A stretch of 59,109 nt of DNA, the filler included. It is 2 parts of 2 records of this genome, joined end to end, with 100 filler letters (N's around TTAATTAATTAA, not from the genome) between each part and the next. Parts side by side here need not be neighbours in the genome. Positions count along the whole stretch, not along the records: positions 28,461 to 59,109 come from SRR20825006_396; 1 more part is not named here. One strand, written 5' to 3'. Position 1 is the stretch's first letter. Each line of letters starts with the position of its first letter. Below the pieces are notes generated by a model that did no database searches, was not told where the DNA came from, and saw only the letters and a list, made by a program, of their open reading frames with translations. The translations under genes were made by a program, and so were the position numbers. Shown piece by piece: positions 28,361-57,162 of the stretch.

Positions 28361-28460
28361 NNNNNNNNNNNNNNNNNNNNNNNNNNNNNNNNNNNNNNNN
28401 NNNNTTAATTAATTAANNNNNNNNNNNNNNNNNNNNNNNNNNNNNNNNNNNNNNNNNNNN
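28361..28460. other. Artificial contig-joining spacer
   Basis: N-run with TTAATTAATTAA (28405-28416; stops in all six frames); genes are truncated on both sides. Confidence 0.98.
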
Positions 28461-37906: not shown

Positions 37907-37909
37907 GGT

Positions 37910-40396: not shown

Positions 40397-40417
40397 GTGC
40401 TCTATCCGGATACTAAA

Positions 40418-42421
40418 TTACGCAAGGACGGATTGCATGAGGTCGACCGGGGCCGCGTCATGGGTCGTGTCGCCAAGGGCGTAGTCGGCGTTTTCGGCGA
40501 ACGTTTCGGTGTGATCGAGAAAAGCGACGACTTCGCTCACCAGAGCATCATCATCATCGCAATCGTCCTGGGCCTCGAGGATATTGGCCTGGATCAGGAT
40601 GGTGTCGGAGTAGTGGTCGCCGCCCACTTCGATGCTGTCACCAAAGGTGTCGTAGTCCTTGATGGCGGCCATATTGACCAGCGCATTGGAGCCGGTGTCG
40701 ATGTCCCACTCGGTGGCGGGCTGCCCATCAAGGAAGGCCTTTTTCTGCAAGGCGACGAAATCCGCGTCCCCCAGAATATTGGTCTGTTCGATATAGCGCA
40801 GATCGTAGATGCTGCCGGAAACATAGAGCACGCGGGGAATTGCAATGCCCTCGAAGTCGTCAGACGCATAAAAACTGGACGGCATGGACTTGTTGCCACT
40901 GGCAAGGCCGTCCATGGCGTCCTGGTAGTGCTCGGAAATGCCGGACTTTACCTCGGTGGCCCCGACATTGTGGATCGAGGCCTGGTTCCAGAGCAGATTG
41001 TTGGAGGTGTTGAGACTGCCCGAGGCAGCATAGTCCCCATCACCGCCTGAACCGAGCATGGTGATGGTGTCATTGTCGTACAGAATATTGTTCTGCACGA
41101 TGACGTTGGCATCAAACACATTGCCGCCGACCAGGATGAGATCGAAGAGCGAGCCGATATTGGCGAAGTTCACACCGTTGAAGCCAATATTCTCGCCACT
41201 GGTCACCACGGCATCGCTGCCGGTTGCCGACAGCACACCGACATCCTCATCGGACATGAAGGTGAGCTGTTTCATCCACTCAAGGAAAATGATGTCGCCC
41301 GAGACGCATGTGACCTGCCAGTTCTGCGGCATAACATCGGGATTCGCCTCGGCGGCAGCGCCGGCGGCATCGAAGGTTTCCTGCACGAAGGTGGCGACAT
41401 TGACCGCGTTGGTTCCTCCGCCTGCCTGTGCGGCCAGCGGGAAGTCATCGTTGACATAATCAGTGTCACTGTAGGCGTTCGTCTGGATGATGGCGTCGAG
41501 CTGGTGCAAATTCCCGCCGACGACGAAATGGGTCCCGACCATGCCACCATTGAGCACGGTGGCCTCGTTGACCAGGAAATTGCCGCCACTTTTGAAGGTG
41601 ACCGACCCCTCGGTAACATCGTTCTCAATCTGGAGATGGGCCTCGTGCTCGCCAGTGACCTTGATGGTATCGGGGGGCGTTGCGTCTTCGGGCTCTTCCT
41701 GCAGATGTTCTGGCAGCGTATCGGTCAGCTCAGGCGCTTCGGTTTCGAGCTGGCCGTTGACATAGGTCCCGGTCAGGGACTCGACCAGTTCAAACTGGGT
41801 GTCGGGATTGGACTGATGGGCCGTGGCGGTCGCGTTCACCGCGTCGATGACCAGAGGGACATCGTCATAGCTAGAAATGCCGGGGCCGGCACCGATGGGG
41901 CCAAGCACGGCATTGCTTGCTGCCTGCAGCCCGAGCAAGCCAGCGTCGGCGCCGGACTGATAGGTCAAGGGCTCGTCCAGCGTGCCCATGACGAAGACGT
42001 CATCATCGGAAAGGCTGATGGTCTGGGAGAAGACCGCGATGACGGAGCCGGGCTCGGTGCCGATCAGCGGGATCACGATATCGCCTGGGCCCGTGGGCCA
42101 TTGGGACAGCGGCGAGTCCAGGTCGGAGGCGGTGAAATCGGGGGTATTGGCCAGACCAATATTTGTCGGACCGAACATCACCTCGCCGCGGATCAGGAAC
42201 TCGGGAGGGGCGTAGAACACGCCAGGGGCATAATTGCCCAGGGCATAGGCCTGGATAACGTCGACGGAAACCTGCTGCATTTCCGGCGTTTCGGGCGCCG
42301 CTTCGGCTTCATGCTCGGCCAGAGCCATTTCCAGCCGGACCTTCATGTCCTCAGCGGCAATCTGGAAGTAGCCGAGAAAGTGGGCGACAATTTCTGAAAG
42401 GGGATCACTTGGAAAAAACAC
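40418..42421 (-). CDS. Large acidic hypothetical protein with about 5 internal modules; probable T1SS substrate
   Basis: GTG start at 42421 after AGGAGG; no signal peptide; ends 21 nt before the ABC gene start; recurring Q-x5-D-x-D, G-x-N-x3-N and V-[GS]-G motifs. Confidence 0.75.
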   Translation of the reverse strand: MFFPSDPLSEIVAHFLGYFQIAAEDMKVRLEMALAEHEAEAAPETPEMQQVSVDVIQAYALGNYAPGVFYAPPEFLIRGEVMFGPTNIGLANTPDFTASDLDSPLSQWPTGPGDIVIPLIGTEPGSVIAVFSQTISLSDDDVFVMGTLDEPLTYQSGADAGLLGLQAASNAVLGPIGAGPGISSYDDVPLVIDAVNATATAHQSNPDTQFELVESLTGTYVNGQLETEAPELTDTLPEHLQEEPEDATPPDTIKVTGEHEAHLQIENDVTEGSVTFKSGGNFLVNEATVLNGGMVGTHFVVGGNLHQLDAIIQTNAYSDTDYVNDDFPLAAQAGGGTNAVNVATFVQETFDAAGAAAEANPDVMPQNWQVTCVSGDIIFLEWMKQLTFMSDEDVGVLSATGSDAVVTSGENIGFNGVNFANIGSLFDLILVGGNVFDANVIVQNNILYDNDTITMLGSGGDGDYAASGSLNTSNNLLWNQASIHNVGATEVKSGISEHYQDAMDGLASGNKSMPSSFYASDDFEGIAIPRVLYVSGSIYDLRYIEQTNILGDADFVALQKKAFLDGQPATEWDIDTGSNALVNMAAIKDYDTFGDSIEVGGDHYSDTILIQANILEAQDDCDDDDALVSEVVAFLDHTETFAENADYALGDTTHDAAPVDLMQSVLA

Positions 42422-42474
42422 GGGACACCTCCTACTCGCCAATTCGATTCCCAGCGGACTGGCGGAAGTAAGAT

Positions 42475-42507
42475 GATCTGCGCGGTGGGGGCGCTACCGC
42501 GCAGATC
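42475..42507. terminator. Strong intercistronic hairpin
   Basis: GATCTGCGCGGT...ACCGCGCAGATC perfect 12-bp arms just downstream of the D/N/S-rich gene. Confidence 0.65.
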
Positions 42508-42531
42508 TTTGCAAGCGTTGGGGGCGCTCGC

Positions 42532-43743
42532 TTATGCGTCGTCGGTGCTTGCGTCGTTGTTCATGTGGTTGTTGCCACCAACCACCGTCGCGTCGACTGC
42601 GTTCTGCTGCAGGTTGGCACCAAGCACGACTTCCATGTTGAAGGCCGAACCGCTCACCGCTGCACTGGCATCGGCCATGTTGCTGGCGGTCGAGTTGTTG
42701 CTGGCATCACCTTCAAAGTCGTTGCCGTTGGCGTCAGCATCGTCAGCATATGCATAGGCGTTGTAGGTGCCGTTGGCATTGTTCTGAACATTGCTCAGCG
42801 TGTCGTTGTCGACAATGTCGGCCACCTGGCTGATCGCGAAACCAGTGTCGCCGCCGCCGCCCGAGAAGGCGCCATTGAAGACGTTCTCGAAGTTGACATC
42901 GTCACCTGGATCGAATTCGAGCGTGCCGCTGTTGATGAACAGATTGTCCATGGTGGCGGAGCCGATATCGAGGTCGGCGAAGTCATCATCGGAGTTGAAC
43001 GAGTTCGTAGCGTCATCGTCCGAGCTGTTGAACGAGTCCTCGATTTCGACATCCACATCCAGATCAACATCCACGTCGGTGTCAGTTGAGCTGTCAGTAT
43101 TGGTCGAGTTGTCGTTCATCGAGTTATTGACGGACTTATTGTTCGCCACATCTTCAATGTGCGCATCGAGATCGACATCGGTGTCGGTATCGTTGTCCTG
43201 AGAATTGTCATTGAAGGAGTTGGTGTTACCCGAATCCTCAATTTCAACTTCGATGTCGTCGATGGTTGTAGAGCTATCCGTCGAGTTGTCGTTGTTGGAG
43301 TTCGTGTCCGAGTTATCGTTCAGCGAGTCGGCCATGGCGAAGGCCGATGATTGATCCCGGTTATCGGAATTGTCGTTGTTCGAGTTGGTGTCCGAATAGT
43401 CGTTCAGAGAATCTTCGATTTCAACATCGACGTCTGTCGAGTTGTCGGAATTGTCATTCAGAGAATCCTCGATTTCAACATCGACGTCAGTGTCTGTCGA
43501 GTTGTCATTATTCGAATTGGTATCCGAATTGTCGTTCAGGGAATCCTCGATTTCGACATCCAGGTCAGTGTCTGTCGAATTGTCGTTGTTGGAGTTGGTG
43601 TCCGAGTTATCGTTCCCGGAGTCATCCACGTCGATATCGTTGCCGGAATTCGTATTTCCGGAATCTTCAATTTCCAGCTCGATATCGTCGATGTTGGTGG
43701 AATTGTCAGTGGCATTGCCATTGTTGTTGAAGTCGTCAGCCAT
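42532..43743 (-). CDS. Asp/Asn/Ser-rich repeat protein; probable T1SS-secreted structural protein
   Basis: ATG at 43743 after GAGGAG; 403 aa; tandem NDNS..TDxDxDVEIEDSL repeats; no signal peptide, no Cys or Trp. Confidence 0.8.
   Translation of the reverse strand: MADDFNNNGNATDNSTNIDDIELEIEDSGNTNSGNDIDVDDSGNDNSDTNSNNDNSTDTDLDVEIEDSLNDNSDTNSNNDNSTDTDVDVEIEDSLNDNSDNSTDVDVEIEDSLNDYSDTNSNNDNSDNRDQSSAFAMADSLNDNSDTNSNNDNSTDSSTTIDDIEVEIEDSGNTNSFNDNSQDNDTDTDVDLDAHIEDVANNKSVNNSMNDNSTNTDSSTDTDVDVDLDVDVEIEDSFNSSDDDATNSFNSDDDFADLDIGSATMDNLFINSGTLEFDPGDDVNFENVFNGAFSGGGGDTGFAISQVADIVDNDTLSNVQNNANGTYNAYAYADDADANGNDFEGDASNNSTASNMADASAAVSGSAFNMEVVLGANLQQNAVDATVVGGNNHMNNDASTDDA
42979..43707 (-). repeat. Coding tandem repeats (about 26-aa unit NDNSDTNSNNDNSTDTD[LV]DVEIEDSL and shorter variants)
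   Basis: Two near-identical adjacent 78-bp units plus several degenerate copies visible in the translation. Confidence 0.9.
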
Positions 43744-44291
43744 AGTCACTCTCCTCAATGAAAAATAATGGCTGAGCTACCAAGACCTCCTGTCATCTTG
43801 AATGGAGGCATATTTGGGGGCTCATGACCTGCAAGGCATACGCGAGATACACGGGCTACTGGTGCTGCACGCAAAAACTGATCAACACCGTCCAGTCCAG
43901 AACTCAATTACCAAGCACGACGCGGCATTTGCTGCATCGCAGTTTCAAAGTATTGCTGGACGAAAGGCGAAGTATAGTTGCCACTTCAGGCTAGGCTGAA
44001 GGGCCCAATAGTAATCTTATCGACTTAGGACATGTGTTCGGTGCGCGGAGGAGCTAGATCGTTTCCAATCCCCTGTACGGGGGAGAAACCGCACCAGGAA
44101 CTCCATCGAAAGGTTGATTTTGGCCAGCCCGAAGGGGTTAGAGATCAATCTTTTGCATTAGTCTCGCCGGGGAATGAATCACGCCAGAGTCACGCCCGCG
44201 GTGTTAACGTTTTGTCAACCTTGGGAGCGATGGTGCCAAGCACAACTGGGGACAGGCGTTCACAGTAATCGCAAGGTGAGGGAGTGGTAAA

Positions 44292-45146
44292 GTGCGTGAA
44301 AACCTCTATGACGGTCTACGCAGTCCGCGTCAGATCGAAGATCGGCCAATAAAATCCGGCACACTTCGGCTTGTGTTTGTTGCCCCACAACAAGCCATAT
44401 ACCAATGCCTTAGCAGTGCATTACAGGACCATTTTCGCGATGCGGCGGTTTTTCTAGTCGACCGGATCGATGATAGCAGTGATCCGGATCATAGTGTCGG
44501 GCTGGTGCTGCTCGGCGCAGGCGCCCGGGTGATCAGCGTAGATTTCATCGAGCAATGCCGCCGGCGCTTTCCCAATGCGGCCATTGCGGTCGCCGTCGAT
44601 AATGGCCTGCCGGTCGTGGACCCGCAGCTGACCGAGCAGCGACTCATTCAGGGAATCCTGCCCACGTCCCTGCCGCTCGATGTCTGGTTCGCGCTGATGC
44701 GGCTGGTCATGGCCGGCGGTGAATATCTGCCACATGGCGATGGCGCCGCATCGGGCCATTTCGAGCCGGTGCATCGGAGCGCGCCGGGCGCGCTTCCGCT
44801 GACGCCGGCCAGCCAGGCACCAGCGCCCCGGCAAAGACTGGCCGCCGAAATTGCGGTGCAGCAGAGCGACCGGGTCCAGGGTGAGCTGGAAAACGGCCTG
44901 GATACGCTGACGGCGCGGGAGCGGGAGATACTCACTCTTGTGTCGGAAGGGTATCAAAACAAGCTGATTGCCGATCGGATGGCCTTGTCGGAACATACCG
45001 TCAAGGCGCATGTGCACAATCTGATCGCCAAGCTTCGGGTGACCAACCGCACCCAGGCGGCCGCCTATCTGCACGAACACCGGGTCGATAAGAGCGCCCT
45101 TAACACTGGATATGGTGACCGCCGTCGGGCCACCGCCCTGGGGTGA
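44292..45146 (+). CDS. LuxR-family HTH regulator with a degenerate receiver-like N-terminus
   Basis: LTAREREILTLVSEGYQNKLIADRMALSEHTVKAHVHNLIAKLRVTNRTQAA; GGAG RBS. Confidence 0.9.
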   Translation: MRENLYDGLRSPRQIEDRPIKSGTLRLVFVAPQQAIYQCLSSALQDHFRDAAVFLVDRIDDSSDPDHSVGLVLLGAGARVISVDFIEQCRRRFPNAAIAVAVDNGLPVVDPQLTEQRLIQGILPTSLPLDVWFALMRLVMAGGEYLPHGDGAASGHFEPVHRSAPGALPLTPASQAPAPRQRLAAEIAVQQSDRVQGELENGLDTLTAREREILTLVSEGYQNKLIADRMALSEHTVKAHVHNLIAKLRVTNRTQAAAYLHEHRVDKSALNTGYGDRRRATALG

Positions 45147-45634
45147 ATGCCATGCCCAGCCTGGACAAGGTGCTCCAGCAGGTCGGTCAGTTGAACTATG
45201 TGTGGACCAATACGGAAAGCCTGTTCATCTACCTGATCGCCCACCTGGCCGGAACGTCCAAGGACGCTGCGGTCATCATATTCCTGACGCTGAACACCAC
45301 GCGGGCGCGACTGGACCTGCTTGACAGGTTGGCCAAATTGCCGGCAACGCCGCCAGAGACCAGGGCGGCGGTGCTGGACCTGACCGAGCGCCTCAAGAAA
45401 GAGTCCAAGGTCCGGAACAAATACAATCATTGCATCTACTCATTCGACTCCAATGGCGAATTGAGCGGGACGCAATTGATGCGCATTGTCGAGTTTGACG
45501 ATGCGCTCAAATATGGCAAGTCCGAAGCGCTGGACGACAGGGAGTTTGAACGGGTTCAGGCCGCCATCCAGGCGATTACATCGGTCAATCGGGATTTGTG
45601 GGCGTTCTTTGCGGCCAGCGGAATCAAGCCCTGA
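45143..45634 (+). CDS. Hypothetical helical protein, overlapping the LuxR stop codon
   Basis: GTGA overlap with the luxR-like gene (alternative ATG at 45152); contains VGQLNYVWTNTES and VRNKYNHC. Confidence 0.7.
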   Translation: MNAMPSLDKVLQQVGQLNYVWTNTESLFIYLIAHLAGTSKDAAVIIFLTLNTTRARLDLLDRLAKLPATPPETRAAVLDLTERLKKESKVRNKYNHCIYSFDSNGELSGTQLMRIVEFDDALKYGKSEALDDREFERVQAAIQAITSVNRDLWAFFAASGIKP

Positions 45635-45778
45635 ATTGATCAAAAGTTTGCATGGATTGAACAAATAACCGTGAGCGGCGGATGGCCCAGGCGTAAGTTG
45701 TACAATGTATGTTCTTGTTAGGGTAAGATCAGCAGTTCTCGTACAGAACATTGCTGCGTAGAGGGACGGAGGGCGCAG

Positions 45779-46528
45779 ATGGGTATTCAAGCGCCGCACC
45801 ACACAACAATAAGGCTGCTTGGCCCCTGTTGCCTGCTTGTGGGCAACAATCTGGTCCAGGGCGTTCCTGCGAGTTTTTTCCGGATCGCGGCCTATCTGAT
45901 CCTCTCCACCCCCGAACAGGTGCAGGCGCGCAGCCGATTGGCGGCACTGTTCTGGCCCAATGCGGATGACGGCAAGGCGGCAGCCAATCTACGCCAGGCT
46001 GTTGCCCGAATACGGCATGTCCAGGAACAGCATGGATTCACTCTGATCCAGGCCAATGTCTCGACCCTGCACCTGGCCCCTAGCGCTGATGTCTATTGCG
46101 ACCTGATCGAGATGTCCCGGCATATCGAGGGAGAAGTCGTGCTCAACCCGCTGCAGCTTTCGCGCATTTATGGTGGCGAGTTGCTGGCCAATCAGGACTC
46201 GAGCGGGGAGGAATTCGAGGACTGGTTGTCCTCACGACGCAATGAATTGCTGCTGCATGCGGTCGACGGCATTGCCGAGGGATTGCGCCCGGACGTAGTG
46301 TTCACCCAGGCCGAGCGCAGCATCTGTGCGCGGCGTCTGCTCGAACTCGATCCCTATCGGGAAGACGCGGTTTGCGTCTTGATGGAGGAGGCGGCGGAGC
46401 GCCGGCACTATGCCAGGGTGAACGAGCTTTACACCGCCATGCGGAGCGTATTGTCCAACGAGCTGGGCGTCGAACCGAGCGCAGAAACGCGGGCGCTTTA
46501 TGCCAGTTTGATGGAAACCGTGCGCTGA
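45779..46528 (+). CDS. SARP/BTAD-domain transcriptional regulator (stand-alone)
   Basis: IRLLG, RSRLAALFWP..ANLRQ, FEDWL, LELDPYREDA, ELGVEPSAET. Confidence 0.85.
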   Translation: MGIQAPHHTTIRLLGPCCLLVGNNLVQGVPASFFRIAAYLILSTPEQVQARSRLAALFWPNADDGKAAANLRQAVARIRHVQEQHGFTLIQANVSTLHLAPSADVYCDLIEMSRHIEGEVVLNPLQLSRIYGGELLANQDSSGEEFEDWLSSRRNELLLHAVDGIAEGLRPDVVFTQAERSICARRLLELDPYREDAVCVLMEEAAERRHYARVNELYTAMRSVLSNELGVEPSAETRALYASLMETVR

Positions 46529-46544
46529 CGGCGCGCGTCATGGC

Positions 46545-47675
46545 TCATGCGAAAGCGGTCAGGATCGCGCCATGCATGGGTTTGGCCTGCCACTCGCGAT
46601 CATAGGGCAGACCGCGATTGGCCGCGCTGCGCTGGGTGCGCAGCCAGGAATGGCTGTCGCTCAATCCCCAGGTGCTGACCCCCAGGACATTGTTGAACTG
46701 CAAGACGATATCGAGGTAGCGGCGGGTTTCGTCGGCCACCAGCGCATCGCGCCGCTCGATGGAGAGGCCGGTATTGGCCTCGGCGACATCGAGCTCGGTG
46801 ATCGCCACCTTGAGCCCCATGCTGCGAATATCGCGCATCATGCCATAAATGCCATCGGCATAGACATTGCCTTTGCGCAGATCCAGATGCGCCTGCAGGC
46901 CGACCGTGTCGACCGGCGCTCCGCGCGAGCGTAGGCGTTCAAGCAGCCGCAGCAGCGAGAGGCGGCGCTGGCCTTCATAGCCGCTATCATATTCGAGCCC
47001 GTATTCATTGATGACCATGCGGGCACGCGGCGCGCGGCTCTTGGCCGCCTCCAGGGCCCGCTCGATATAGGCTTCGCCGAAGGCCTTGTAGAACTGGTTC
47101 TGCCGCAACCCGTTTCCGCCGTGACTGGGTTCGATCGGTTCGTTGACCACGTCCCATTCGCGCACCTGGCTGCCATAGCGGCCAATGACCTTTGAAAAAT
47201 GATCGTCGATCAGCGCCCAGTCACGATCGGACGCCAGGGCCGAGGCCGCCCAGCGCGGCAGGCTCTTGTGCCAGAGCAGCGTGTGGCCGCGCATGGCCAG
47301 GCCATTGCGGGAGGCAAAGCTGGCGAGCTGGTCCATCTCACCATAATTGTAATTGCGGCTGGGCGCGATGGAGTCCCATTTCATGGCCCATTCAGGGGTG
47401 ATGATGGAACAGTCGCGCACAACGCTGGAGCGGAACCGGCTGTCGCCCAGGGTCGCGCTCTGAATGGCGGCGCCGAAATAAAGACCGCGCGAGGATGCCG
47501 CCGAGCGCAGTGCGCGGACCGGCGGCGGCGTGGCGGGGCGAGGCTGGCGCGCCTGCGGCTGGTCCGGGGTAGCGGTGACCGATCCGGTCTGCGTCGTGTC
47601 GACACGGGCGCAGCCGATCAGCTGCCCGACAGTCAGCGCAGCGGCTGCACCTATGATGAGATCTCGACGCTTCAC
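46545..47675 (-). CDS. Glycoside hydrolase family 10 (endo-beta-xylanase-like), Tat-exported lipoprotein
   Basis: GTG start at 47675 after GGAGG; KRRDLI twin-arginine and LIGC lipobox; PEWAMKW, RGHTLLWH, WDVVNEP (acid/base), GLQAH, ITELDV (nucleophile). Confidence 0.9.
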   Translation of the reverse strand: MKRRDLIIGAAAALTVGQLIGCARVDTTQTGSVTATPDQPQARQPRPATPPPVRALRSAASSRGLYFGAAIQSATLGDSRFRSSVVRDCSIITPEWAMKWDSIAPSRNYNYGEMDQLASFASRNGLAMRGHTLLWHKSLPRWAASALASDRDWALIDDHFSKVIGRYGSQVREWDVVNEPIEPSHGGNGLRQNQFYKAFGEAYIERALEAAKSRAPRARMVINEYGLEYDSGYEGQRRLSLLRLLERLRSRGAPVDTVGLQAHLDLRKGNVYADGIYGMMRDIRSMGLKVAITELDVAEANTGLSIERRDALVADETRRYLDIVLQFNNVLGVSTWGLSDSHSWLRTQRSAANRGLPYDREWQAKPMHGAILTAFA

Positions 47676-47889
47676 TGGTGCCTCCCCGAATCGAACACCG
47701 ACCAACCCTGCCAATAGAAAAATGAAGCAAGGACCGGAACGCGGCAATTAGACAGAACTATCTAGATCGTTGTATTAGTAGCACCATTTCAAATCAAAAG
47801 TTAGACTATCCGCTAACAGAGTCATTTGATGCGGGAGAGGTTCTGCAGAAAGCTTTGTGGTACAGCAACTTTGTTAGTGGTGAGTCGAG

Positions 47890-48528
47890 ATGCACAAGTT
47901 ATCACAAGTAGTAAACACGAGAATATTGGGCATTTCTACTGCCCTAACACTTATGGCGGCACTGCCCGCTGCGGCCGAATCGCTGGTCGTTATATCCATG
48001 GCTGGAGAGGCCTATGACGGCCCACCTAGCTTTGATCTTTTGATCGATGACAAGGTGATTGGCAGCGGCACGCTGCGCATGGCGATCGAAACCGAAGCCG
48101 ATGGGCGCCTGTTTACCAAACCGCGCCCCAGCTCGTTCCTGGAAGAGTTTTCCTTCACGGTCTCCGATGACCTGCTGACCCCGGACGCTGAAATCAGCCT
48201 GGTGCTGACCAATGACAAGTTTACCCGCATGGACGGCGCCGGCGAGGACGGGGTGCTCGACCGCAACCTGTTCATCGACTTCGTGCGGGTCAACGACATC
48301 GAGGTGACGTCAGCCGATATGGTGCTGATCCATGATGGCGATGTGGTGCAATATAACTACCAGGCGGGACTGTTGCCGATCTATGAGGCAGGGTTTCGTG
48401 CGGTGGCGCGGGCGCCCGAGGGCGGCTGGCTGAATGGCGCCGTTGCCCGGGTCGGTATGCTCGATATCCCCTTGCCCTTGCCGCGACCGAAGGATCTGAC
48501 GCTCGACGTCGGCCTGGTGCAGCAATGA
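47890..48528 (+). CDS. Exported protein with a CBM60-like Ca-dependent carbohydrate-binding domain
   Basis: Signal peptide; [19 protein letters not shown] and [13 protein letters not shown] match my recollection of the Ca-dependent xylan-binding module pattern. Confidence 0.65.
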
Positions 48529-49607
48529 GCCCGCAGCATAAAGTGACCAGGCCGGTGCGCCAGATCCGCACCGGCCAGGGGACAGTTACGCCCAAATCCA
48601 TCTGCGTAACCGGTGGGGCGGGGTTCCTTGGTTCGCATCTGTGTGCCCGCCTGATTGGCGAGGGACACCGGGTCACCTGCATCGACAATTTTCACACCGG
48701 CCGTCCGGCCAATGTGGCGGCCCTGGCGCGCAGCAACCGCTTCGAATTGGTCGAGCACGACGTGATGGACACCCTGCCCGAGCAATTGCCGGCCTTTGAC
48801 GAAATCTACAATCTCGCCTGCCCGGCCTCCCCGGTGCATTATCAGAGCGATCCGGTCCGAACCGCGCTGATCTGCGCGGAGGGTGCCGCCAATGTGCTTT
48901 ATCGTGCCCAGCGAGACGGCGCCCGGGTGATGCATGCATCAACCTCGGAAGTTTATGGCGACCCAGAAGTCCACCCGCAGCGCGAGGACTATTGCGGCAA
49001 CGTCAACACGGTCGGCCCGCGCTCCTGCTATGACGAAGGCAAGCGTTTTGCCGAGACGCTGCTCACCGACTTCGGCCGCCAAAGCGGTGTGGTGGTCAAG
49101 ATTGTGCGCATCTTCAATACCTATGGCCCCCGCATGCAGCCTGATGACGGTCGCGTGGTCTCCAATTTCATCCTCCAGGCCCTGCGCGGCGAGGACATCA
49201 CGATCTATGGCCTGGGCCAGCAGACCCGCTCGTTCTGTTACGTCGATGATCTGATCGAGGGCTTTGTCCGCCTCATGGCGTCAGGTCCGGAAGTCGATGG
49301 ACCCGTCAATATCGGCAATCCCACCGAGATTACTGTGGGCGAGTTGGCGCGCATCATCATCGAGATGACTGGTTCACCGTCAAAGCTCGTTCATCTGCCC
49401 CTGCCGGTCGATGATCCGCGCCGCCGGCGTCCCGACATCACCCGTGCCAGCACCCTGCTCGGCTGGGGGCCGCGCGTGCCCCTGACCGAAGGGCTGGAAA
49501 AAACCATCCGCTTCTTTGCCAGCCTCAACCAGACGCTGGCGCCAGCAACGCGCCGTGGACCGGTCTTTGCACCGGCCACCCAGAGTGAGCCCTTCGTACA
49601 AATCTAG
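48525..49607 (+). CDS. uxs: UDP-glucuronate decarboxylase (UDP-xylose synthase)
   Basis: [68 protein letters not shown]. Confidence 0.92.
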
Positions 49608-49634
49608 TTTTAGTAACAGAGTGAGTGATGAACC

Positions 49635-51065
49635 ATGCGCCTCATTATTATCGGTTCGGGTTATGTCGGTTTGGTTTCGGGCGCATGCCTGGCGGAGCTG
49701 GGACACCACGTCATGTGCGTGGACAATGATGCAAACAAGGTCGAGCAGCTTCAGGCCGGCCAGATCCCCATCTATGAACCGCAGCTCTCCGAGATGATCA
49801 CCCGAAATGTGGCGCAGGGACGCCTGGGCTTCACGAGCCGGTTGCCGGCGCTGGGCAAGGAGATACATGCGGTCATGATCGCGGTTGGCACGCCGCCCCA
49901 GACCAATGGCAGCGCTGATCTCAGCGCCATTTTCGCGGTCGCCGAGGAAGTTGCCTCCAAGGCCATCCATCCGCAAATGGTGATCATCAAATCCACGGTA
50001 CCGGTCGGCACTGGCGACAGCGTGCAGGCGTTGATGCACAAGGCGCGACCCGAATTGCACTTCTCGGTGATCTCCAATCCCGAATTCCTGCGCGAAGGCT
50101 CGGCCATTGATGACTTCATGGCGCCGGACCGCATCGTGGTGGGCGCCGGAGACGAAACCGCGCGCAATACGCTGCGGGCGCTCTATGCGCCGCTGGAGCA
50201 GACCGGAACGCAGGTGGTCTGCATGGGCCGGCGGGATGCCGAACTGGTCAAATGCGCCGCCAATGCGTTCCTGGCCACCAAGATCGCCTTCATCAATGAA
50301 ATGGCGGATCTGTGCGAAGCGGTCGGTGCTGATGTCGACCAGGTGGCCCATGGCATCGGGCTGGACGAGCGGATCGGCGCGGCTTTCCTGCAGGCCGGAC
50401 CGGGCTATGGCGGGTCGTGCTTCCCCAAGGACACGACAGCGCTGCAGGCCATTGCCCAGGAGCATGGGATCAATCTGCGACTGGTCGAAACCGTCATTGC
50501 CTCCAATGAGGCGCGCAAGCGCGCGATGGGCCGCCGGGTGTCGAGGGCGCTGCATGGCGACTTGTCCGGGCGGGTCGTGGCGGTGCTGGGCCTGACCTTC
50601 AAGCCCAATACGGACGACATGCGTGATTCACCGTCCCTGGCCCTGATCGATGCCCTGCAACGGGCCGGTGCAAAGGTGCAAGTGTTTGATCCGCAAGGCA
50701 TGAATCGGGCCCGTGCGCATCTGCCCGATGTCCATTTTGCGGACAATGCCTATCTCTGTGCCGAAGGGGCGGATTGCACCGTTCTGGCCACCCATTGGCC
50801 CGAATTTGCCACGCTGGACGCCGAGCGGCTGGCGCGGCTGGTGCGTAATAAGGTCTTGGTGGACCTGCGCAATTTCCTCGATCAACAGGCCTTTCTCAAT
50901 GCCGGTTTTGCGGTCCACGCCATTGGGCGATCGCCGCAGCAGCCCCGGCGCCATAACGTGGTCGCGGTGCCCCAGCTCAGCGCCCGCACCCCGTCCAGGA
51001 GGGCCTACATGAACGGGACAGCGCACCGTCCGAGCCGGGCCCTGCAAGATGGCATGAGCGGCTAG
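49635..51065 (+). CDS. ugd: UDP-glucose 6-dehydrogenase
   Basis: GSGYVGL, IAVGTP, KSTVPVG, SNPEFLREG, GYGGSCFPKD, FKPNTDDMR. Confidence 0.93.
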   Translation: MRLIIIGSGYVGLVSGACLAELGHHVMCVDNDANKVEQLQAGQIPIYEPQLSEMITRNVAQGRLGFTSRLPALGKEIHAVMIAVGTPPQTNGSADLSAIFAVAEEVASKAIHPQMVIIKSTVPVGTGDSVQALMHKARPELHFSVISNPEFLREGSAIDDFMAPDRIVVGAGDETARNTLRALYAPLEQTGTQVVCMGRRDAELVKCAANAFLATKIAFINEMADLCEAVGADVDQVAHGIGLDERIGAAFLQAGPGYGGSCFPKDTTALQAIAQEHGINLRLVETVIASNEARKRAMGRRVSRALHGDLSGRVVAVLGLTFKPNTDDMRDSPSLALIDALQRAGAKVQVFDPQGMNRARAHLPDVHFADNAYLCAEGADCTVLATHWPEFATLDAERLARLVRNKVLVDLRNFLDQQAFLNAGFAVHAIGRSPQQPRRHNVVAVPQLSARTPSRRAYMNGTAHRPSRALQDGMSG

Positions 51066-51092
51066 AACCAGCGTCGCGAGAGGGGGCAGGTT

Positions 51093-52595
51093 ATGGAAAC
51101 CAGCGAGACAGTGAGCCTATTGCTTGTCGGTGCCTTCTGCACGGTCCAGATCGCCTATGCCCTCTCGCAATGGCTTGATCTTTATTTCTTCACCCGCCCG
51201 GTCAACTGGGTGGACCCGAATGCGGCGCGCGGCAGGCCCCCGGAAGACTATCCCTATATCGTGCTGTTCTACCCGGTGCTGCGCGAACTCGAATCCACCA
51301 TGCGCACCACATTCCTGAGCCTGGCGCAGCTCGAATATCCCAAGGACAAGTTCAGCGTCGTGGCCATTCCCAATGCCGATGACGCCTTCACCGTGCGCTC
51401 GCTGCGGCGGCTGCAGAAGGAATTCCCCTTCCTCCAGATTATTGAAGTGCCGGCCACTTCGCACAAATCCTGGCTGGTGGTGTGGAAGGCCTGGGATCGC
51501 TGCAAGAAGGCCTATTGGTGGCATGAGGGCAAGTTCGCCCAGAACCGCAATCTGCCGCCCAAGAAGACGCGGCAATTGATCTATGCCTTCTACCAGATCG
51601 CCGAGCGGGTGATGACCACCCAGGACTTCCTGGTCAACTATATCGACGCGGACAGTTGCCCGCCCAGCGACCATTTCCTGGCCGCGGCCGCCGGCATGGG
51701 GCAGTATGACGTGCTCCAGGCGCAGAACATCGCGGGCAATCTCAACGCGAGCTGGGCGGCGAGCTGGCATGCCTTTGACCACATGGCCTGGGACGGCTCG
51801 AAATATCCGCATCTCTCGGCCAATGGGAAACACCCCTATTGGGTGCTGGGCAAAGGGCTGTTCTTCCGCGCCTCGGACCTGATCACGCTGGGCGGCTTCC
51901 ACCCCTGGCTGACGATCGAGGACCCGGAAGTGGGCATGCGCTTCTGGACCAATGGCAAGCGGCTGGGGGTCATTGAAAACCCCTTGATCGAGGAAGTTCC
52001 GCTGACCTTTGCGCATGGCATTACCCAGCGCAAGCGCTGGGTGGCGGGGTTCTTCCAGAGCCTGACCTACCCGCTCAAGGCCATTGGCATGCCCTGGCCG
52101 GCCCGCTTCAAGGCGTGGCTGAATTTCCTGCCATGCCTGTCGCTCTCGCTCAACTCCGTCGGTCTTCCGCTGGGGATCTGGGCCACCTGGTCGGCCTGGA
52201 CCGGACAGAACATATTGCCCGATTGGGCCATCGTGCTGTCCCTGGCCAATCTGGTGGTCTTCACCGCGTCGATGAGCGCGCTTTATGTGCGCACCTGGCG
52301 CCGCGCGGCGCTGGTCCTGCCCAGGCGCAAGGACCGTCTACGCTATCTGTGGCGGGTCAATCCGGTCTTTATCCTGGTGTGGTGGCTGATCTGGCTCGTT
52401 CCGCTCTGGATCGGCTTCCGCATGTTCCTGCGCAATGAGGGCCTGGTATGGGAACGCACCGAGAAGACCGATGCCAACCACGATCTGGTCCGCGTCGCGC
52501 GAACCAAAAAATCGCACGCAACGACCCGCCCCGCTGCCGCCGTCAAATCCAACCAGCCCGCCACCATGGAAGCAGGGGCCGAAAAATCCTCATAA
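51093..52595 (+). CDS. Membrane GT2 glycosyltransferase with a processive-synthase signature
   Basis: N-terminal TM; IDAD (DxD), TIED, QRKRW (QxxRW); C-terminal TMs; WERTEK tail. Confidence 0.85.
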   Translation: METSETVSLLLVGAFCTVQIAYALSQWLDLYFFTRPVNWVDPNAARGRPPEDYPYIVLFYPVLRELESTMRTTFLSLAQLEYPKDKFSVVAIPNADDAFTVRSLRRLQKEFPFLQIIEVPATSHKSWLVVWKAWDRCKKAYWWHEGKFAQNRNLPPKKTRQLIYAFYQIAERVMTTQDFLVNYIDADSCPPSDHFLAAAAGMGQYDVLQAQNIAGNLNASWAASWHAFDHMAWDGSKYPHLSANGKHPYWVLGKGLFFRASDLITLGGFHPWLTIEDPEVGMRFWTNGKRLGVIENPLIEEVPLTFAHGITQRKRWVAGFFQSLTYPLKAIGMPWPARFKAWLNFLPCLSLSLNSVGLPLGIWATWSAWTGQNILPDWAIVLSLANLVVFTASMSALYVRTWRRAALVLPRRKDRLRYLWRVNPVFILVWWLIWLVPLWIGFRMFLRNEGLVWERTEKTDANHDLVRVARTKKSHATTRPAAAVKSNQPATMEAGAEKSS

Positions 52596-52622
52596 GACGC
52601 GTAATGAGTAAGGAGTAACACA

Positions 52623-53762
52623 ATGACGAAAGGACACGTTCTGGTCACCGGGGGTGCCGGCTTTATCGGATCTCATCTGGTGGACATGTTGCTGGCCCGG
52701 GGGTTCGACGTCACCGTCCTCGATTGCCTGCTGGACCAGGTACATGGCGACGCCGAGCGCGATGCCGAGGGTTGGCCGGTCTATCTCAATCCCGCCGCCC
52801 GCCGCATCAAAGGCAATATTCTCGATGACGGCGTGTTCGAGAGCGCCCTTAGCGGCATTACCCATCTGGCCCACCTCGCCGCTTCGGTCGGGGTTGGGCA
52901 GAGCATGACCAATATTGTCGATTACACCCGCAACAACACCATGGCCGCGGCGATCATGCTCGAAGTGCTGTCGCGTACCGAGCACAGCGTCGAGCGCATG
53001 ACGGTGGCCTCATCCATGTCGATCTATGGCGAAGGGCAATATGTCGAGGCCGAGACTGGCCGCCCGGTCATGCCCGATATGCGCGATCACGAACAGTTGC
53101 AGGCTCATCACTGGGAGCTGAACAAGGACGGCGCGACCCTGCTGCCTGTGCCGACCGACGAGAACAAACTGCTCCAGCCCGCCTCGATCTATGCGGTCAA
53201 CAAGCGCGACCATGAGGAGATGTTCCTCTCGGTCGGGCGGGCCCTCAAGATTCCCACCGTGGCGCTCAGGCTGTTCAATGCCTATGGCTCGCGCCAGGCG
53301 CTGAGCAATCCCTATACCGGGGTTGCCGCCATCTTCATTTCACGCCTGCTCAACGACCAGCCACCCATCATCTTCGAGGATGGGGAGCAGAAGCGTGATT
53401 TCGTGCATGTGCTCGATGTGGCCAATGCCTTTGCCACCGTGCTCGAAAGCGATCTGGCGGTGTGGGAAACGTGCAATGTCGGCAGCGGGCAGGCGCGGAC
53501 CGTCAACGAGATTGCGACCACACTGGCTCGGCTGTTGCGCAAGAATATCGCGCCGACCATTCTCAACCAGTACCGGGTCGGGGATATCCGCCATTGCTTT
53601 GCCGATATCAGCAAGCTCGAAAAGCTGTTCGGCATCCGGCCGACGCAGGAGTTCGAGGCGGGGATGGCGCAGTTGATCGAATGGGTGCAGACGGTGAACC
53701 GCCCGCAGGACCGCTCGCAGCAATCGCTGGCCGAGCTGACCCGCAGCCGATTGGTGGTTTGA
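52623..53762 (+). CDS. NAD-dependent nucleotide-sugar epimerase/dehydratase (extended SDR)
   Basis: TGGAGFIGS, ASSMSIYGE, YAVNK (YxxxK), RDFVHV, GDIRH. Confidence 0.88.
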   Translation: MTKGHVLVTGGAGFIGSHLVDMLLARGFDVTVLDCLLDQVHGDAERDAEGWPVYLNPAARRIKGNILDDGVFESALSGITHLAHLAASVGVGQSMTNIVDYTRNNTMAAAIMLEVLSRTEHSVERMTVASSMSIYGEGQYVEAETGRPVMPDMRDHEQLQAHHWELNKDGATLLPVPTDENKLLQPASIYAVNKRDHEEMFLSVGRALKIPTVALRLFNAYGSRQALSNPYTGVAAIFISRLLNDQPPIIFEDGEQKRDFVHVLDVANAFATVLESDLAVWETCNVGSGQARTVNEIATTLARLLRKNIAPTILNQYRVGDIRHCFADISKLEKLFGIRPTQEFEAGMAQLIEWVQTVNRPQDRSQQSLAELTRSRLVV

Positions 53763-53769
53763 GGCGCAG

Positions 53770-54714
53770 TCAGCCCAGCCGGGGGACTTCGGCCAAAAGC
53801 GTCCGCCAACGGGCTCCCTCACCCGCCGTCTGCAATTGAGCGGCGGCCAGGGCGCTGTCGATGGCGGGACGGGACACCGCCAAACCGGGCAATTGCGCGG
53901 TCATGGCCTCGAATATGGCCGGGTGCAGCGTCAGCACACCCCCGATGACCGCAACTGGATGCGCGCCGGCCCGGGCCTGCATGGCCTGGGCAAGCAAGGC
54001 CAGTTCGGCCCCTGCCTGGCGCAAGATCTCAAGCGCCAAATCATCGCCCAGTTCGGCGGCCCTGGCGACACCGACGGCCAGAGCCCCGATGCGCCCCCGG
54101 TCGCCGGCATAGACATATTGGCGCACATCGTGCCAACCCGACCCGCCCACCAGGGCAAAGACCTGATCGGCTAGGATTTGCCGGCTGGCAAACGACCCCG
54201 TGTGATCGAGCGTACGATAGAGCCGGTCGAGCGCCTTGAGCGCAATCCAGCTTCCTGAGCCGGCATCGTCAATGAGAATGCCCCTGCCCCCGACCCTTAC
54301 GACATCGCCGGCCGCGCCGACATGGATGCCGATGGATCCGGTGCCGGCGGAGACCAGATGCCCGGCCCCGGGCTGGAAATGGGCCGCATAGGCCAGAATA
54401 ATGTCATCCATGAGCAGGATGGCATTGCGCGGCAGGCCGAGTGCCTGTTGGGCAAGACCAGCAATCTCATCGGCAGCGGCGGCACCGAAGCCGGTCAGGC
54501 CGCCGGAGAGGGTTTTGGCCGCAAGGCCATTATGAGCGATCTCGTCGGCCAGTTGGGTGAACACTGCGGCGAGCCGGGTACGTTCGGCCGGGTTGAACAC
54601 ATGAGCCGTGGCGCCGCCGAGCTGACCGCGCGCCAGCACGGCGCCCGCCGGATCGCAGGCCACCCAGCGGCTGGCCGTGCCGCCCACGTCGAGCCCGAGA
54701 TGAACCTGGCTCAC
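53770..54714 (-). CDS. BadF/BcrA-family sugar kinase (N-acetylhexosamine kinase-like)
   Basis: LGLDVGGT, SAGTGS, RVGGRG.LIDDAGSG. Confidence 0.8.
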   Translation of the reverse strand: MSQVHLGLDVGGTASRWVACDPAGAVLARGQLGGATAHVFNPAERTRLAAVFTQLADEIAHNGLAAKTLSGGLTGFGAAAADEIAGLAQQALGLPRNAILLMDDIILAYAAHFQPGAGHLVSAGTGSIGIHVGAAGDVVRVGGRGILIDDAGSGSWIALKALDRLYRTLDHTGSFASRQILADQVFALVGGSGWHDVRQYVYAGDRGRIGALAVGVARAAELGDDLALEILRQAGAELALLAQAMQARAGAHPVAVIGGVLTLHPAIFEAMTAQLPGLAVSRPAIDSALAAAQLQTAGEGARWRTLLAEVPRLG

Positions 54715-55376
54715 CTGGGCACGCCCTCTTTGACAAACATGGCGGTGATTTCGCGCGGATTGGTGATCATGGTGCCCACAACAACGGCATGCGCCCCGGC
54801 GGCAAAGGCTTGGGCGACAAGCTCGGGCCGATTGTAGCGCCCTTCGGCTACCACCGGAACATCAAGCCGTGTGGCCAGGGCCTCGAGCAGGGCCAGGTCC
54901 GGCTCTTCCGGCTTGGGCTGGGTCTTTTCGGTATAGCCCGAAAGGGTCGTGGCGACATAATCGGCGCCCCAATCGGCCGCCTTCAAGCCTTCGTCCAGCG
55001 TCGAAACATCGGCAAAAACCTCGGCGCCGATCTCTTCCTGAATGCGCCGAATGAGAACGCTGGGATGTTCGCCATGGCGCGGGCGCTCGGTGCAATCGAG
55101 CGCAACAATCCCTGCGCCTGATGCATAGATCGTGGCAGCGGCCTCGAAATTGGGGGTGATATAGACCGGGACGTCGTCCGCAAACACCTTGTGAATACCG
55201 ATGACCGGCAGCCCGGCCGCCTGTACGGCCGCAACATCCGCGGGACCATTGGCGCGGATGCCCACGGCGCCGCCATCGCGTGCCGCCAGCGCCATGGCGC
55301 CCATGAACCGGGGACCGTGCAATGGATTATCGGCTCGCGCCTGGCAGGAGACGATGAGGCCCGCGGGCAGCTTCAC
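54711..55376 (-). CDS. nanE: N-acetylmannosamine-6-phosphate 2-epimerase
   Basis: GLIVSCQA, GIRAN, PVIGIHK, VYITP, TTLSGYT, AEGRY, VVVGTMITNP; GTG start at 55376. Confidence 0.9.
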   Translation of the reverse strand: MKLPAGLIVSCQARADNPLHGPRFMGAMALAARDGGAVGIRANGPADVAAVQAAGLPVIGIHKVFADDVPVYITPNFEAAATIYASGAGIVALDCTERPRHGEHPSVLIRRIQEEIGAEVFADVSTLDEGLKAADWGADYVATTLSGYTEKTQPKPEEPDLALLEALATRLDVPVVAEGRYNRPELVAQAFAAGAHAVVVGTMITNPREITAMFVKEGVPR

Positions 55377-56245
55377 TTGACGGCCCCGGAGGTCATGCCG
55401 GCGATGAACTGCCGCGACAGGATAATGTAGATCAGGATGATCGGCGCGGCAGACAGGGTCAGGCCCGAAAACAGCACGCCCCAATCGGTGGTGTATTCGC
55501 CCATGAACGTCGTCAGGCCCTGCGGCAGGGTCTTGAGATTATCGTTCTGGATGAAGACCAGCGGGAAGAAGAAGTCGTTCCAGATCGGCACGACATTCTG
55601 GATGCCGGCAATCACCATGGCGGGCCGCACCAATGGCAGCATGATCGACCACATGATGCGCGCTTCGGAGGCGCCGTCCATGCGGGCGGCGTCTTCGAGT
55701 TCATTGGGCAGGGTGCGGATGAAACCGGTCATGATGAAGACCGTCGTGGGCAGGCCCATGGCGGTATAGACGAAAATCAGCGAGAGCTGGTTATTGAGGA
55801 TGGAGAGGTCGCGCATCAGCATGAAGAGCGGAATGATGGCGAGCTTCAATGGCAGGGTCAGCCCGGCCAGGAAGAACATCAGGATGAAGTTCGAGCCGGT
55901 GAAGGCGTAGCGGCCAATGGCATAGGCGGCCATGGTGCCCAGGGTCAGGATCAGCGCCATGGAGGCGCCGGTGACGACAAAGGAATTGAGCAGGTAGCGC
56001 AGGAAATTGGTCTGCGTCCAGATTTTCACGAAATTGCCCACTTGCGTGAAATCGGGAATGCCGAAGGGCGACTGGAAGATCTGCGGCGTGGTCTTGAAGG
56101 CCGAAAACACCATGATGACGATGGGCGCCAGCATAATGATGGTGTTGGCGATCAGGATGATCTGCAACAGCCCGTCGCGACCCAGCGTGCCCAGAATGCC
56201 CCTGCGGTCCTGATAGGCCATGGCGGTCGTGGTCGCGGTGCTCAT
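55373..56245 (-). CDS. Carbohydrate ABC permease
   Basis: ELEDAARMDGAS (EAA loop), WNDFFFPL, ends GAVK. Confidence 0.9.
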   Translation of the reverse strand: MSTATTTAMAYQDRRGILGTLGRDGLLQIILIANTIIMLAPIVIMVFSAFKTTPQIFQSPFGIPDFTQVGNFVKIWTQTNFLRYLLNSFVVTGASMALILTLGTMAAYAIGRYAFTGSNFILMFFLAGLTLPLKLAIIPLFMLMRDLSILNNQLSLIFVYTAMGLPTTVFIMTGFIRTLPNELEDAARMDGASEARIMWSIMLPLVRPAMVIAGIQNVVPIWNDFFFPLVFIQNDNLKTLPQGLTTFMGEYTTDWGVLFSGLTLSAAPIILIYIILSRQFIAGMTSGAVK

Positions 56246-57162
56246 ATCTGAATCTCCCGGGCGCGCAGGCGCACGGTGATGACCGTGGCGATGGCGGCGA
56301 TGAAGAGGAAAATCAGCACGGCCAGGGCCGAACCGAGGCCGAAATCCTGCTGGCCGGCAGACACATTGCCAAAGGCCGTGCGGTAGAAATAGAGCCCCAG
56401 CACATCGGTCGAGCCAAAGGGCGACCCGTCCAGCCCACCCATGATGTAGGGCAGCTCGAACCAGTTGAAGGCGCCCACAAACAGCAGGGTAAACACGATG
56501 GTGGCGCTGGGTGCCACGAGCGGCCAGACGATCTGGGTGATCTTGACCCATTCGCTTTCGGTTTCCATGCGCACGGCGTCGAGGATTTCCCCCGGAATGC
56601 GCTGCATGCCGGCCAGAAAGACCAGGGTGGGGAAGCCCACCATGTGCCAGGCCTGGGCGGCAATGATGCTCCAGAGCGCGGTGCCGCTCTGCCCCAGCCA
56701 GGGTTGCGCCAGCCCGTCGAGCCCGAGGCCCCGGAGGCTGAGGTTCACCACGCCGAACAGCGGGTGATAGAACAGCTTGAACAGATACGCGACGATGATG
56801 GTGGAGAGCACCACGGGCAGAAACACCGCAATGCGGTGGAAGCGAGCACCGGGCAATTCGCGCCAGAGCGCATAGGCCAGGATGAAGCCCAGCCCGTTCT
56901 GCAGCACCATCAGCGCGAAAAAGACAATGATGTTGTTCTTGAAGGCGTTGAGCGTCCAGCTCCGATAGGGCTCGACGAACAGCACGGTGTGGAAATTTTC
57001 AAGGCCCACGAAATCGAGGCGCTTCAGGCCCTGCCAGTCAAAGAAGGCATAGGCGAAGGCCGAAATGATCGGATAGACGATGAACAGCGCCACGAAGGCC
57101 AGTGGCGGCACGATCAGCGCAGTAATCCAGAGGCCGCGGCCTGTCATCCGAAGTTTGGGCAT
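56242..57162 (-). CDS. Carbohydrate ABC permease
   Basis: FVGLENF, FLPVVLS, FLAGMQRIP.EILDA. Confidence 0.9.
   Translation of the reverse strand: MPKLRMTGRGLWITALIVPPLAFVALFIVYPIISAFAYAFFDWQGLKRLDFVGLENFHTVLFVEPYRSWTLNAFKNNIIVFFALMVLQNGLGFILAYALWRELPGARFHRIAVFLPVVLSTIIVAYLFKLFYHPLFGVVNLSLRGLGLDGLAQPWLGQSGTALWSIIAAQAWHMVGFPTLVFLAGMQRIPGEILDAVRMETESEWVKITQIVWPLVAPSATIVFTLLFVGAFNWFELPYIMGGLDGSPFGSTDVLGLYFYRTAFGNVSAGQQDFGLGSALAVLIFLFIAAIATVITVRLRAREIQI

Follow-up and report, generated by a model that had tools for sequence, protein, structure and literature searches.

A module of six genes lies at positions 46545-53762 of the window, the 59,109-nt stretch of DNA analysed here, and consists of a divergent gene for a GH10 glycoside hydrolase and an operon that encodes a CBM60-like secreted protein, a UDP-xylose synthase (Uxs), a UDP-glucose dehydrogenase (Ugd), a membrane-integrated family 2 glycosyltransferase (GT2) and a second extended short-chain dehydrogenase/reductase (SDR2) resembling 4-epimerases. 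We prefer, with somewhat better than even confidence, to interpret the module as a synthase-dependent system for an exopolysaccharide that draws on UDP-xylose. Its product would be a beta-linked glycan that contains pentose, with xylose in the region cut by GH10, and that probably includes a second, epimerised sugar as well. The parts of this interpretation differ in strength. It is highly probable that GT2 makes a secreted polymer and probable that this polymer contains a pentose derived from UDP-xylose, and the proposal that xylose lies in the backbone cut by GH10 falls slightly short of an even chance.

In the proposed pathway, Ugd and Uxs would convert UDP-glucose (UDP-Glc) through UDP-glucuronate (UDP-GlcA) to UDP-xylose (UDP-Xyl), SDR2 would epimerise a UDP-sugar at C4, and GT2, a minimal synthase resembling those of cellulose and hyaluronan, would polymerise one or more UDP-sugars and pass the chain through its own transmembrane part. 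GH10, predicted to be exported by the twin-arginine translocation (Tat) system and to be of lipoprotein type in Devosia, would trim or release the chain in the periplasm, the role attributed to BcsZ, PslG and ApsE, which are thought to trim or release their own polymers there. The polymer would be handled outside the inner membrane by the CBM60-like protein in Devosia or by a BcsS-like protein in other lineages. The analysis shows directly what the genes are, that they are co-conserved, and which fold and catalytic residues they have, whereas processivity, the route of export, the composition of the polymer and the role of GH10 are inferred.

Gene set and conservation

The layout proposed by a sequence-only reading of the same DNA was recovered gene for gene, and all six genes are open frames with high third-position GC. 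The GH10 gene (46545-47747, minus strand, 400 aa) is divergent from the operon across an AT-rich intergenic region of 142 bp (47748-47889). On the plus strand follow the genes of the CBM60-like protein (47890-48528, 212 aa), Uxs (48525-49607), Ugd (49635-51065), GT2 (51093-52595, 500 aa) and SDR2 (52623-53762, 379 aa), with a 4-nt overlap at the first junction and gaps of 27, 27 and 27 nt at the others. Both precursor enzymes are canonical by their sequences, and the UDP-Xyl supply that the earlier reading had assigned to them is thus encoded in the locus. Uxs, a UDP-glucuronate decarboxylase, scores 358 bits against human UXS1 (2b69) over residues 23-332 and is 65% identical to uxs1 of S. meliloti pSymB. 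Ugd, a UDP-glucose 6-dehydrogenase, has three UDPG_MGDP_dh Pfam domains, reaches 446 bits with TIGR03026 (cut-off 189.8) and matches the TuaD model at E 1e-138.

Conservation was followed in 66 GT2-bearing loci, for which one genome per species was scanned and in which the GT2 relatives are 56-95% identical to that of the window. By record title, 14 loci are from Devosia, 28 from other Alphaproteobacteria or Pseudomonadota (including Reyranella, Aureimonas, Aquamicrobium, Brevundimonas, Phenylobacterium, sphingomonads and Rhodovulum), 23 from metagenome-assembled genomes (MAGs) of Eremiobacterota type and one from an 'Acidiferrales' MAG. Genes were counted by tblastn with the proteins of the window, several loci being cut by contig ends; a gene-order table based on open reading frames (ORFs) was not used for the counts, owing to the antisense shadow ORFs typical of high-GC DNA. 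SDR2 was present in 59 of the 66 loci and lay on the same strand directly downstream of GT2 in 56, GH10 was present in 56 at a median distance from GT2 of 1.9 kb (maximum 3.5 kb), uxs in 51 and ugd in 46, and 35 loci carried GT2, SDR2, GH10, Uxs and Ugd together. The CBM60-like protein had a homologue in 15 loci, and in 20 loci, from Eremiobacterota, Brevundimonas and others, a BcsS-like protein of 246 aa was encoded between SDR2 and GH10; the member tested, that of locus L041, matched PF17036 at E 1e-18. The GT2 family is compact, with 43 representatives (50% clustering) at E <= 1e-30. The module is therefore a sharply delimited one, common to marine and soil Alphaproteobacteria and to mostly uncultured Eremiobacterota, and its cultured carriers include D. 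indica, D. marina and the type strains Devosia subaequoris DSM 23447 and Aureimonas ureilytica DSM 18598, which makes it directly testable.

The pairing of GH10 with GT2 was also followed in a sample of 101 Devosia genomes, related members of which are not independent samples. GT2 occurred in 14 of them. GH10 homologues of at least 44% identity were found in 12 genomes, every one GT2-positive, and the two GT2-positive genomes lacking such a homologue are represented by small assemblies (2.6 and 1.7 Mb). In the 11 GT2-negative genomes with any GH10 match, identity came to only 32-37%. The pairing recurs in two phyla, and by this measure the gene set is more than a chance neighbourhood. These results bear on the possibility that GH10 is an ordinary xylan-catabolic enzyme lying by chance beside an unrelated sugar-nucleotide and GT2 operon, as might be expected of a family that mostly degrades plant xylan and of a protein that has C. 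fimi Cex and further GH10 xylanases as its closest solved relatives (E 1e-48). However, this GH10 clade is co-inherited with GT2 across phyla and, within Devosia, only in GT2-positive genomes, and no xylose-utilisation genes adjoin the module. A stray catabolic xylanase is therefore ruled out for practical purposes by the recurrence of the pairing, and we regard that explanation as scarcely credible. The earlier proposal of a biosynthetic module rather than xylan catabolism is supported by the conserved gene set, as is the tie of GH10 to that module by its co-inheritance with GT2.

GH10 itself is a clear member of its family (PF00331, E 5.9e-75, 252.8 bits against a gathering score of 22.1). 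In an alignment with Cex, residues E203, E318, N202, H155, W159, Q285, H287, W360 and W368 are invariant in 54 orthologues; we take E203 and E318, in the NEP and TELD motifs, to be the catalytic glutamates and the listed His, Trp, Asn and Gln residues to form the -1 subsite. The Lys of the AMKWD motif is not invariant and is Asn in Eremiobacterota. An RR-type leader motif occurs in 43 of the 54 orthologues. At the N-terminus of the window protein, as read from the translation, a twin-arginine motif is followed by a lipobox-like LIGC, and GH10 is therefore predicted to be exported with a Tat-type leader and probably anchored in the membrane.

The CBM60-like protein has a signal peptide, and its beta-sandwich spans about residues 30-175, which is also the confident core of its AlphaFold (AF2) model (pLDDT 72.7 overall). 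The only Protein Data Bank (PDB) matches of this model at E <= 0.001 were the CBM60 entries 2xhh and 2xfd, with TM-scores of 0.65-0.66 by target length. The CBM-like gene of the sequence-only reading thus encodes a protein that resembles CBM60 both in sequence and in fold. The same reading took the binding module to point to xylose, but 2xfd is by its title a cellobiose complex and CBM60 proteins bind several beta-glycans, so the protein does not single out xylan. It may have a part in handling the polymer, either in the periplasm or in the matrix.

GT2 and its epimerase partner

GT2 (PF13632, E 4e-24) has the motifs of a membrane synthase, namely D185-A-D187 (DxD), E276-D277 (ED) and Q312-R313-K-R315-W316 (QRxRW), of which D185, D187, E276-D277 and Q312-R313-x-R315-W316 are invariant in 35 sequences. 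Hydrophobic segments lie at residues 5-28, 373-399 and 418-446, and the protein has about 4-5 membrane helices. The top Foldseek matches of its AF2 model (pLDDT 87.2) were cellulose synthase from bacteria, hyaluronan synthases, CesA from plants and Chs1 from yeast (E 2e-12). By VIA-align, E. coli BcsA scored Z 26.2 with 362 residues aligned over model residues 3-468, R. sphaeroides BcsA Z 23, and hyaluronan synthase and CesA about Z 21, whereas soluble GT2s did not exceed Z 17.4. This cellulose/hyaluronan-synthase-like membrane fold, with the motifs kept, agrees with the polymer synthase suggested earlier, and it makes processivity of GT2 likely. Its next neighbours, at 26-30% identity, are unnamed and match the CelA, PgaC and NodC models weakly. 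One relative in the representative library, P0126 (1078 aa, 58% identity), carries a Ser/Thr protein kinase domain at its N-terminus, and this fusion hints at phosphorylation-based control in some lineages.

SDR2 (PF01370, E 3.5e-43), left unexplained in the earlier reading as an SDR, is now seen as an enzyme of 4-epimerase type and as the most faithful partner of GT2. To its presence in 59 loci is added a paralogue coupled to uxs in the Brevundimonas locus L034 (11477-13674 of that locus, minus strand), which is 43% identical, has the same insertion described below and overlaps uxs by 4 nt. This paralogue lies on the opposite strand from GT2 and has Asn in place of the Cys at the 'gatekeeper' position. 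Of the seven loci lacking SDR2, four are from Brevundimonas and have a tblastn match of 42-43% in its place. The GGAGFIG cofactor motif, SSMSIYG, S130/S131, Y190 and K194 are kept across 42 orthologues. SDR-type dehydratases and decarboxylases carry an acidic residue after the serine; SDR2 has none after its catalytic serines, which argues against either activity. Some 40 residues (about 139-178) are inserted between the serines and the tyrosine, an insertion specific to the family and shared by 42 of 42 full-length orthologues. The position called the 'gatekeeper' in GalE is Cys325 in SDR2, is kept in at least 98% of the 42 sequences and does not discriminate between substrates. From these features SDR2 is predicted to be a C4-epimerase, with UDP-Xyl, UDP-GlcA, UDP-Glc and UDP-GlcNAc as candidate substrates.

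If SDR2 were a UDP-xylose 4-epimerase, GT2 might polymerise mainly L-arabinose into a polymer cut by GH10. The enzyme logic would then be that of the operon for the arabinose-containing polysaccharide (APS) of S. meliloti, in which Uxs and a 4-epimerase stand together with a membrane GT2, a hydrolase and small secreted proteins, and the available passages on that operon describe its product as an arabinose-containing, Congo-red-binding polysaccharide (PMC7902896, PMC12560781). The constancy of the epimerase beside GT2 and the overlap of its L034 paralogue with uxs fit such an arabinan. On the other hand, SDR2 is not an orthologue of Uxe, the GalE-type UDP-xylose epimerase of S. meliloti (24% identity), and groups with WbpP/PelX-type enzymes, and GT2 matches the synthase ApsS at only 28% identity over 144 residues. 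Moreover, we know of no GH10 or CBM60 that acts on arabinans. We consider an arabinan unlikely.

Still less likely is a plain beta-1,4-xylan homopolymer, for which GT2 would use UDP-Xyl only and SDR2 would serve another pathway. Such a product would suit the position of uxs directly before GT2 in many loci, the GH10 -1 subsite, which we take to be canonical for xylose, and the CBM60 likeness of the small secreted protein. Yet a homoxylan needs no epimerase, and SDR2 is tied to GT2 more tightly than uxs is; the CBM60 structure solved with cellobiose, from a family that is not xylan-specific, is a further point against it. Since SDR2 is nearly universal in these loci, an epimerised sugar (L-arabinose, GalA, Gal or GalNAc) is argued to be among the substrates, and a plain homoxylan is not the most economical product.

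Several observations weigh against the preferred interpretation. The uxs gene is missing from 15 of the 66 loci, and of five such genomes searched throughout, three carry a Uxs of 55-60% identity elsewhere and two have no close homologue: the search found in Reyranella massiliensis only an SDR of 38% identity, which lies at a distance of 6 kb and reaches no NCBIfam equivalog, and in a Cybelea MAG only a 33% match with internal stops. The closest solved chains to SDR2 are 6dnt and 6wj9/6wjb, followed by MoeE5 and the Thermotoga GalE (TmGalE); we take 6dnt and 6wj9/6wjb (PelX) to be UDP-GlcNAc 4-epimerases and MoeE5 a UDP-GlcA 4-epimerase, so SDR2 may bring in a sugar that is not a pentose. The CBM60-like protein stays below the cut-off of PF16841 (24.8 bits against a gathering score of 28.2, E 3.2e-5), and in the four Devosia genomes examined there was no BcsS match and no outer-membrane component was found. 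GT2 had no match at E <= 0.01 among PDB sequences, so that its donor specificity cannot be read from the sequence. Finally, the crenarchaeal membrane mannosyltransferase 6yv7, which does not polymerise, scored Z 23.3 against the GT2 model, near BcsA, and the fold alone is thus no proof of processivity. The earlier suggestion of a beta-xylan as the GT2 product is accordingly not established, given the loci without uxs and an epimerase that argues for a second sugar.

Two further explanations draw on these observations. A uronic-acid or hexose heteropolymer free of pentose, with SDR2 making UDP-GalA, UDP-Gal or UDP-GalNAc and uxs being accessory, would account for the six loci that have ugd, GT2, SDR2 and GH10 but lack uxs, for the eight with neither ugd nor uxs, for the two searched genomes without a close Uxs, and for the presumed UDP-GlcNAc and UDP-GlcA specificities of the solved relatives of SDR2. 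Against it, uxs is present in 51 loci and, in three of the five locally uxs-less genomes, elsewhere in the genome, and the conserved GH10 -1 subsite, if we have assigned its residues correctly, fits a sugar without C6. This makes a polymer free of pentose improbable. A shade more doubtful is the absence of any polymer, with GT2 glycosylating a membrane lipid or other acceptor once or a few times, for example in a membrane-remodelling glycolipid whose head group GH10 would recycle. The (Q/R)xxRW-type motif presumably occurs in lipid glycosyltransferases as well, 6yv7 provides a structural parallel, some GT2 homologues carry PF13506, and several Eremiobacterota loci (L041, L035, L040 and others) have one to three PF04185 phosphoesterase genes (phospholipase C/acid phosphatase family) before ugd-uxs-GT2. 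But an endo-type GH10 and the CBM60-like and BcsS-like proteins imply a glycan chain outside the inner membrane, and both the best structural matches of GT2 and the weak family matches of its neighbours are polymer synthases.

Within the preferred interpretation of a UDP-xylose-fed exopolysaccharide, a more specific proposal can be offered tentatively, and we think it more probably wrong than right. GT2 would be a bacterial cellulose-synthase-like processive synthase of beta-xylan or of arabino- or uronoxylan, by a route unrelated to plant GT43/GT47, the GH10 clade would be a glycanase for the module's own polymer rather than an enzyme of plant-biomass digestion, and Alphaproteobacteria and Eremiobacterota would share the module because it has spread between them. 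If the product is a xylose-based glycan, a bacterial synthase of this type would have been described for the first time, and the reading of GH10 genes in genome-based predictions of 'xylan degraders' would change.

Surroundings of the module and source of the contigs

Three genes on the plus strand upstream of the module (44292-46528) are co-conserved with it in Hyphomicrobiales and are probable regulators. They encode a LuxR-type regulator with a GerE domain (44292-45146; 14 of the 66 loci), a 163-aa protein (45143-45634; 22 loci) and a BTAD/SARP-type regulator with a BTAD domain (45779-46528; 16 loci). The gene of the 163-aa protein overlaps the LuxR-type gene by 4 nt; the protein belongs to no family in Pfam or NCBIfam, the protein atlas gives only unnamed clusters for it, and its Reyranella homologue is the C-terminal portion of a larger protein (about 290 aa). 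The region between GH10 and the operon presumably holds promoters and operators for both. In an alignment of eight Devosia loci, 93 of its 142 positions are invariant, and it hardly varies between Devosia species that differ by 5-15% in their proteins. Its left end contains an imperfect palindrome, TAGACAGAACTATCTA, as a candidate operator. A scan of 46400-54000 for consensus promoters and terminators gave counts at or below those of shuffled sequences, with nothing above chance.

Downstream, the minus strand (53770-56551) carries genes resembling those of N-acetylglucosamine kinase and nanE, together with the gene of a sugar-type ABC permease (55373-56551). The permease points to amino sugars, since it adjoins the nanE-like and kinase-like genes, and the set would serve amino-sugar rather than xylose uptake. 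These genes are conserved in the closest Devosia loci only and are therefore probably unrelated to the module. The earlier remark that no xylose transporter is adjacent needs this qualification: no xylose-utilisation genes adjoin, but a sugar ABC permease does occur downstream, in amino-sugar-type company.

Further upstream on the minus strand (36572-43758), a type I secretion pair, HlyD-type (36572-37906) and PrtD-type (37910-40396), is accompanied by two very acidic proteins of no Pfam family. One has 674 aa (40418-42442), and its nearest atlas clusters are automatically named 'type I secretion protein'; the other is a D/N/S-repeat protein of 408 aa (42532-43758). In Reyranella, Aureimonas and other Devosia loci, too, the GT2 module has a relative of PrtD or of the 674-aa protein beside it, and the two gene sets may form a combined island for matrix proteins and polysaccharide. 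In some Cybelea loci a PF00535-type GT2 and a DUF2079 membrane protein are encoded near the module.

The window consists of two contigs, joined at 28361-28461 by a run of N, a six-frame stop linker and a second run of N; a truncated phosphoenolpyruvate carboxykinase gene (27583-28320) and a truncated thiamine pyrophosphate-enzyme gene (28476-28802) flank this spacer. The left contig (1-28360) is 97-99% identical to a genome designated G001, while the right contig (28462-59109), which contains the entire module, matches Devosia indica-type genomes at about 90% identity. It may therefore be that one bin combines contigs of different organisms here. The window GT2 is 87-95% identical to the GT2s of seven Devosia species, which identifies the organism of the right contig, by sequence, as a marine-type Devosia. 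Neither GT2 nor the DNA of the right contig was found in G001, and GT2 was absent from all 24 genomes of its genus. This absence had been considered as evidence for an island and was dropped once the window proved to be two contigs with different nearest genomes.

Comparison with known systems

Synthase-dependent exopolysaccharide systems (cellulose, poly-N-acetylglucosamine, alginate, Pel, hyaluronan, mixed-linkage glucan and APS) are few, and each is informative for biofilm biology and biopolymer production. Literature searches on a UDP-xylose synthase/GH10/GT2 exopolysaccharide or a bacterial xylan synthase returned no description of the present module. Bacterial cellulose synthesis (Bcs) is similar in that BcsA is the best match of the GT2 model, that a dedicated exported endoglycanase, BcsZ, belongs to the system, and that a BcsS-family protein is encoded in the 20 related loci described above. 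There are also differences. The Devosia GT2, with only 500 aa and about 4-5 membrane helices, has no PilZ match and reaches 23.5 bits with the CelA equivalog against a cut-off of 699.1, which places it outside BcsA proper; BcsB was not seen in the Devosia locus, the hydrolase is of family GH10 instead of the GH8 of Bcs, and the Devosia module encodes enzymes for UDP-GlcA and UDP-Xyl.

In the hasABC operon for hyaluronan and in the pneumococcal type 3 capsule operon, ugd adjoins the gene of one membrane GT2 synthase, as in the module, and hyaluronan synthases are among the best fold matches of GT2. Those operons, in contrast, lack Uxs, an epimerase and a hydrolase, and the identity to hyaluronan synthase in the structural alignments is 10-12%. 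The xagABCD operon of Xanthomonas comes in through a label only, 7 of 120 listed GT2 homologues having been automatically named 'glycosyltransferase XagB' by the Joint Genome Institute (JGI). The passages on xag describe a biofilm exopolysaccharide of unknown structure and, giving no gene list, mention no uxs, ugd or GH10 (PMC3609779).

The nearest precedent is the APS operon of S. meliloti, which the sequence-only reading had rightly named as one with a differing gene set. According to the passages available, its product is an arabinose-containing biofilm exopolysaccharide (PMC7902896, PMC12560781). The locus (L067) contains uxs1, uxe, apsS (621 aa) and genes for a DUF995 protein, a GH26 hydrolase and a second DUF995 protein, beside the AraC-type cuxR. 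The two systems thus share their parts list, from UDP-xylose synthase and 4-epimerase to membrane GT2, hydrolase and small secreted proteins, all of which APS has in one operon, but only Uxs is orthologous. To the low identity between GT2 and ApsS is added a plasmid search with GT2 that matched five records, of which only that of Rhizobium sp. BG4 is a true relative and none is from Sinorhizobium, so ApsS is not a close homologue. The epimerases belong to separate SDR subgroups, the hydrolase is GH26 (ApsE) in one and GH10 in the other, the DUF995 proteins (ApsH) have no similarity to the CBM60-like protein, and APS has no ugd and has CuxR as its adjacent regulator where Devosia has LuxR and BTAD types. 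The pairing of GH26 with an arabinose polymer, as far as the passages describe it, makes the hydrolase family a weak predictor of the polymer. By its sequences APS is therefore an analogue of the Devosia module and not a system to which the module belongs. Since the same logic is carried out by different protein families, the module would work like APS, and it is likely to be a biosynthetic one for a pentose-linked exopolysaccharide.

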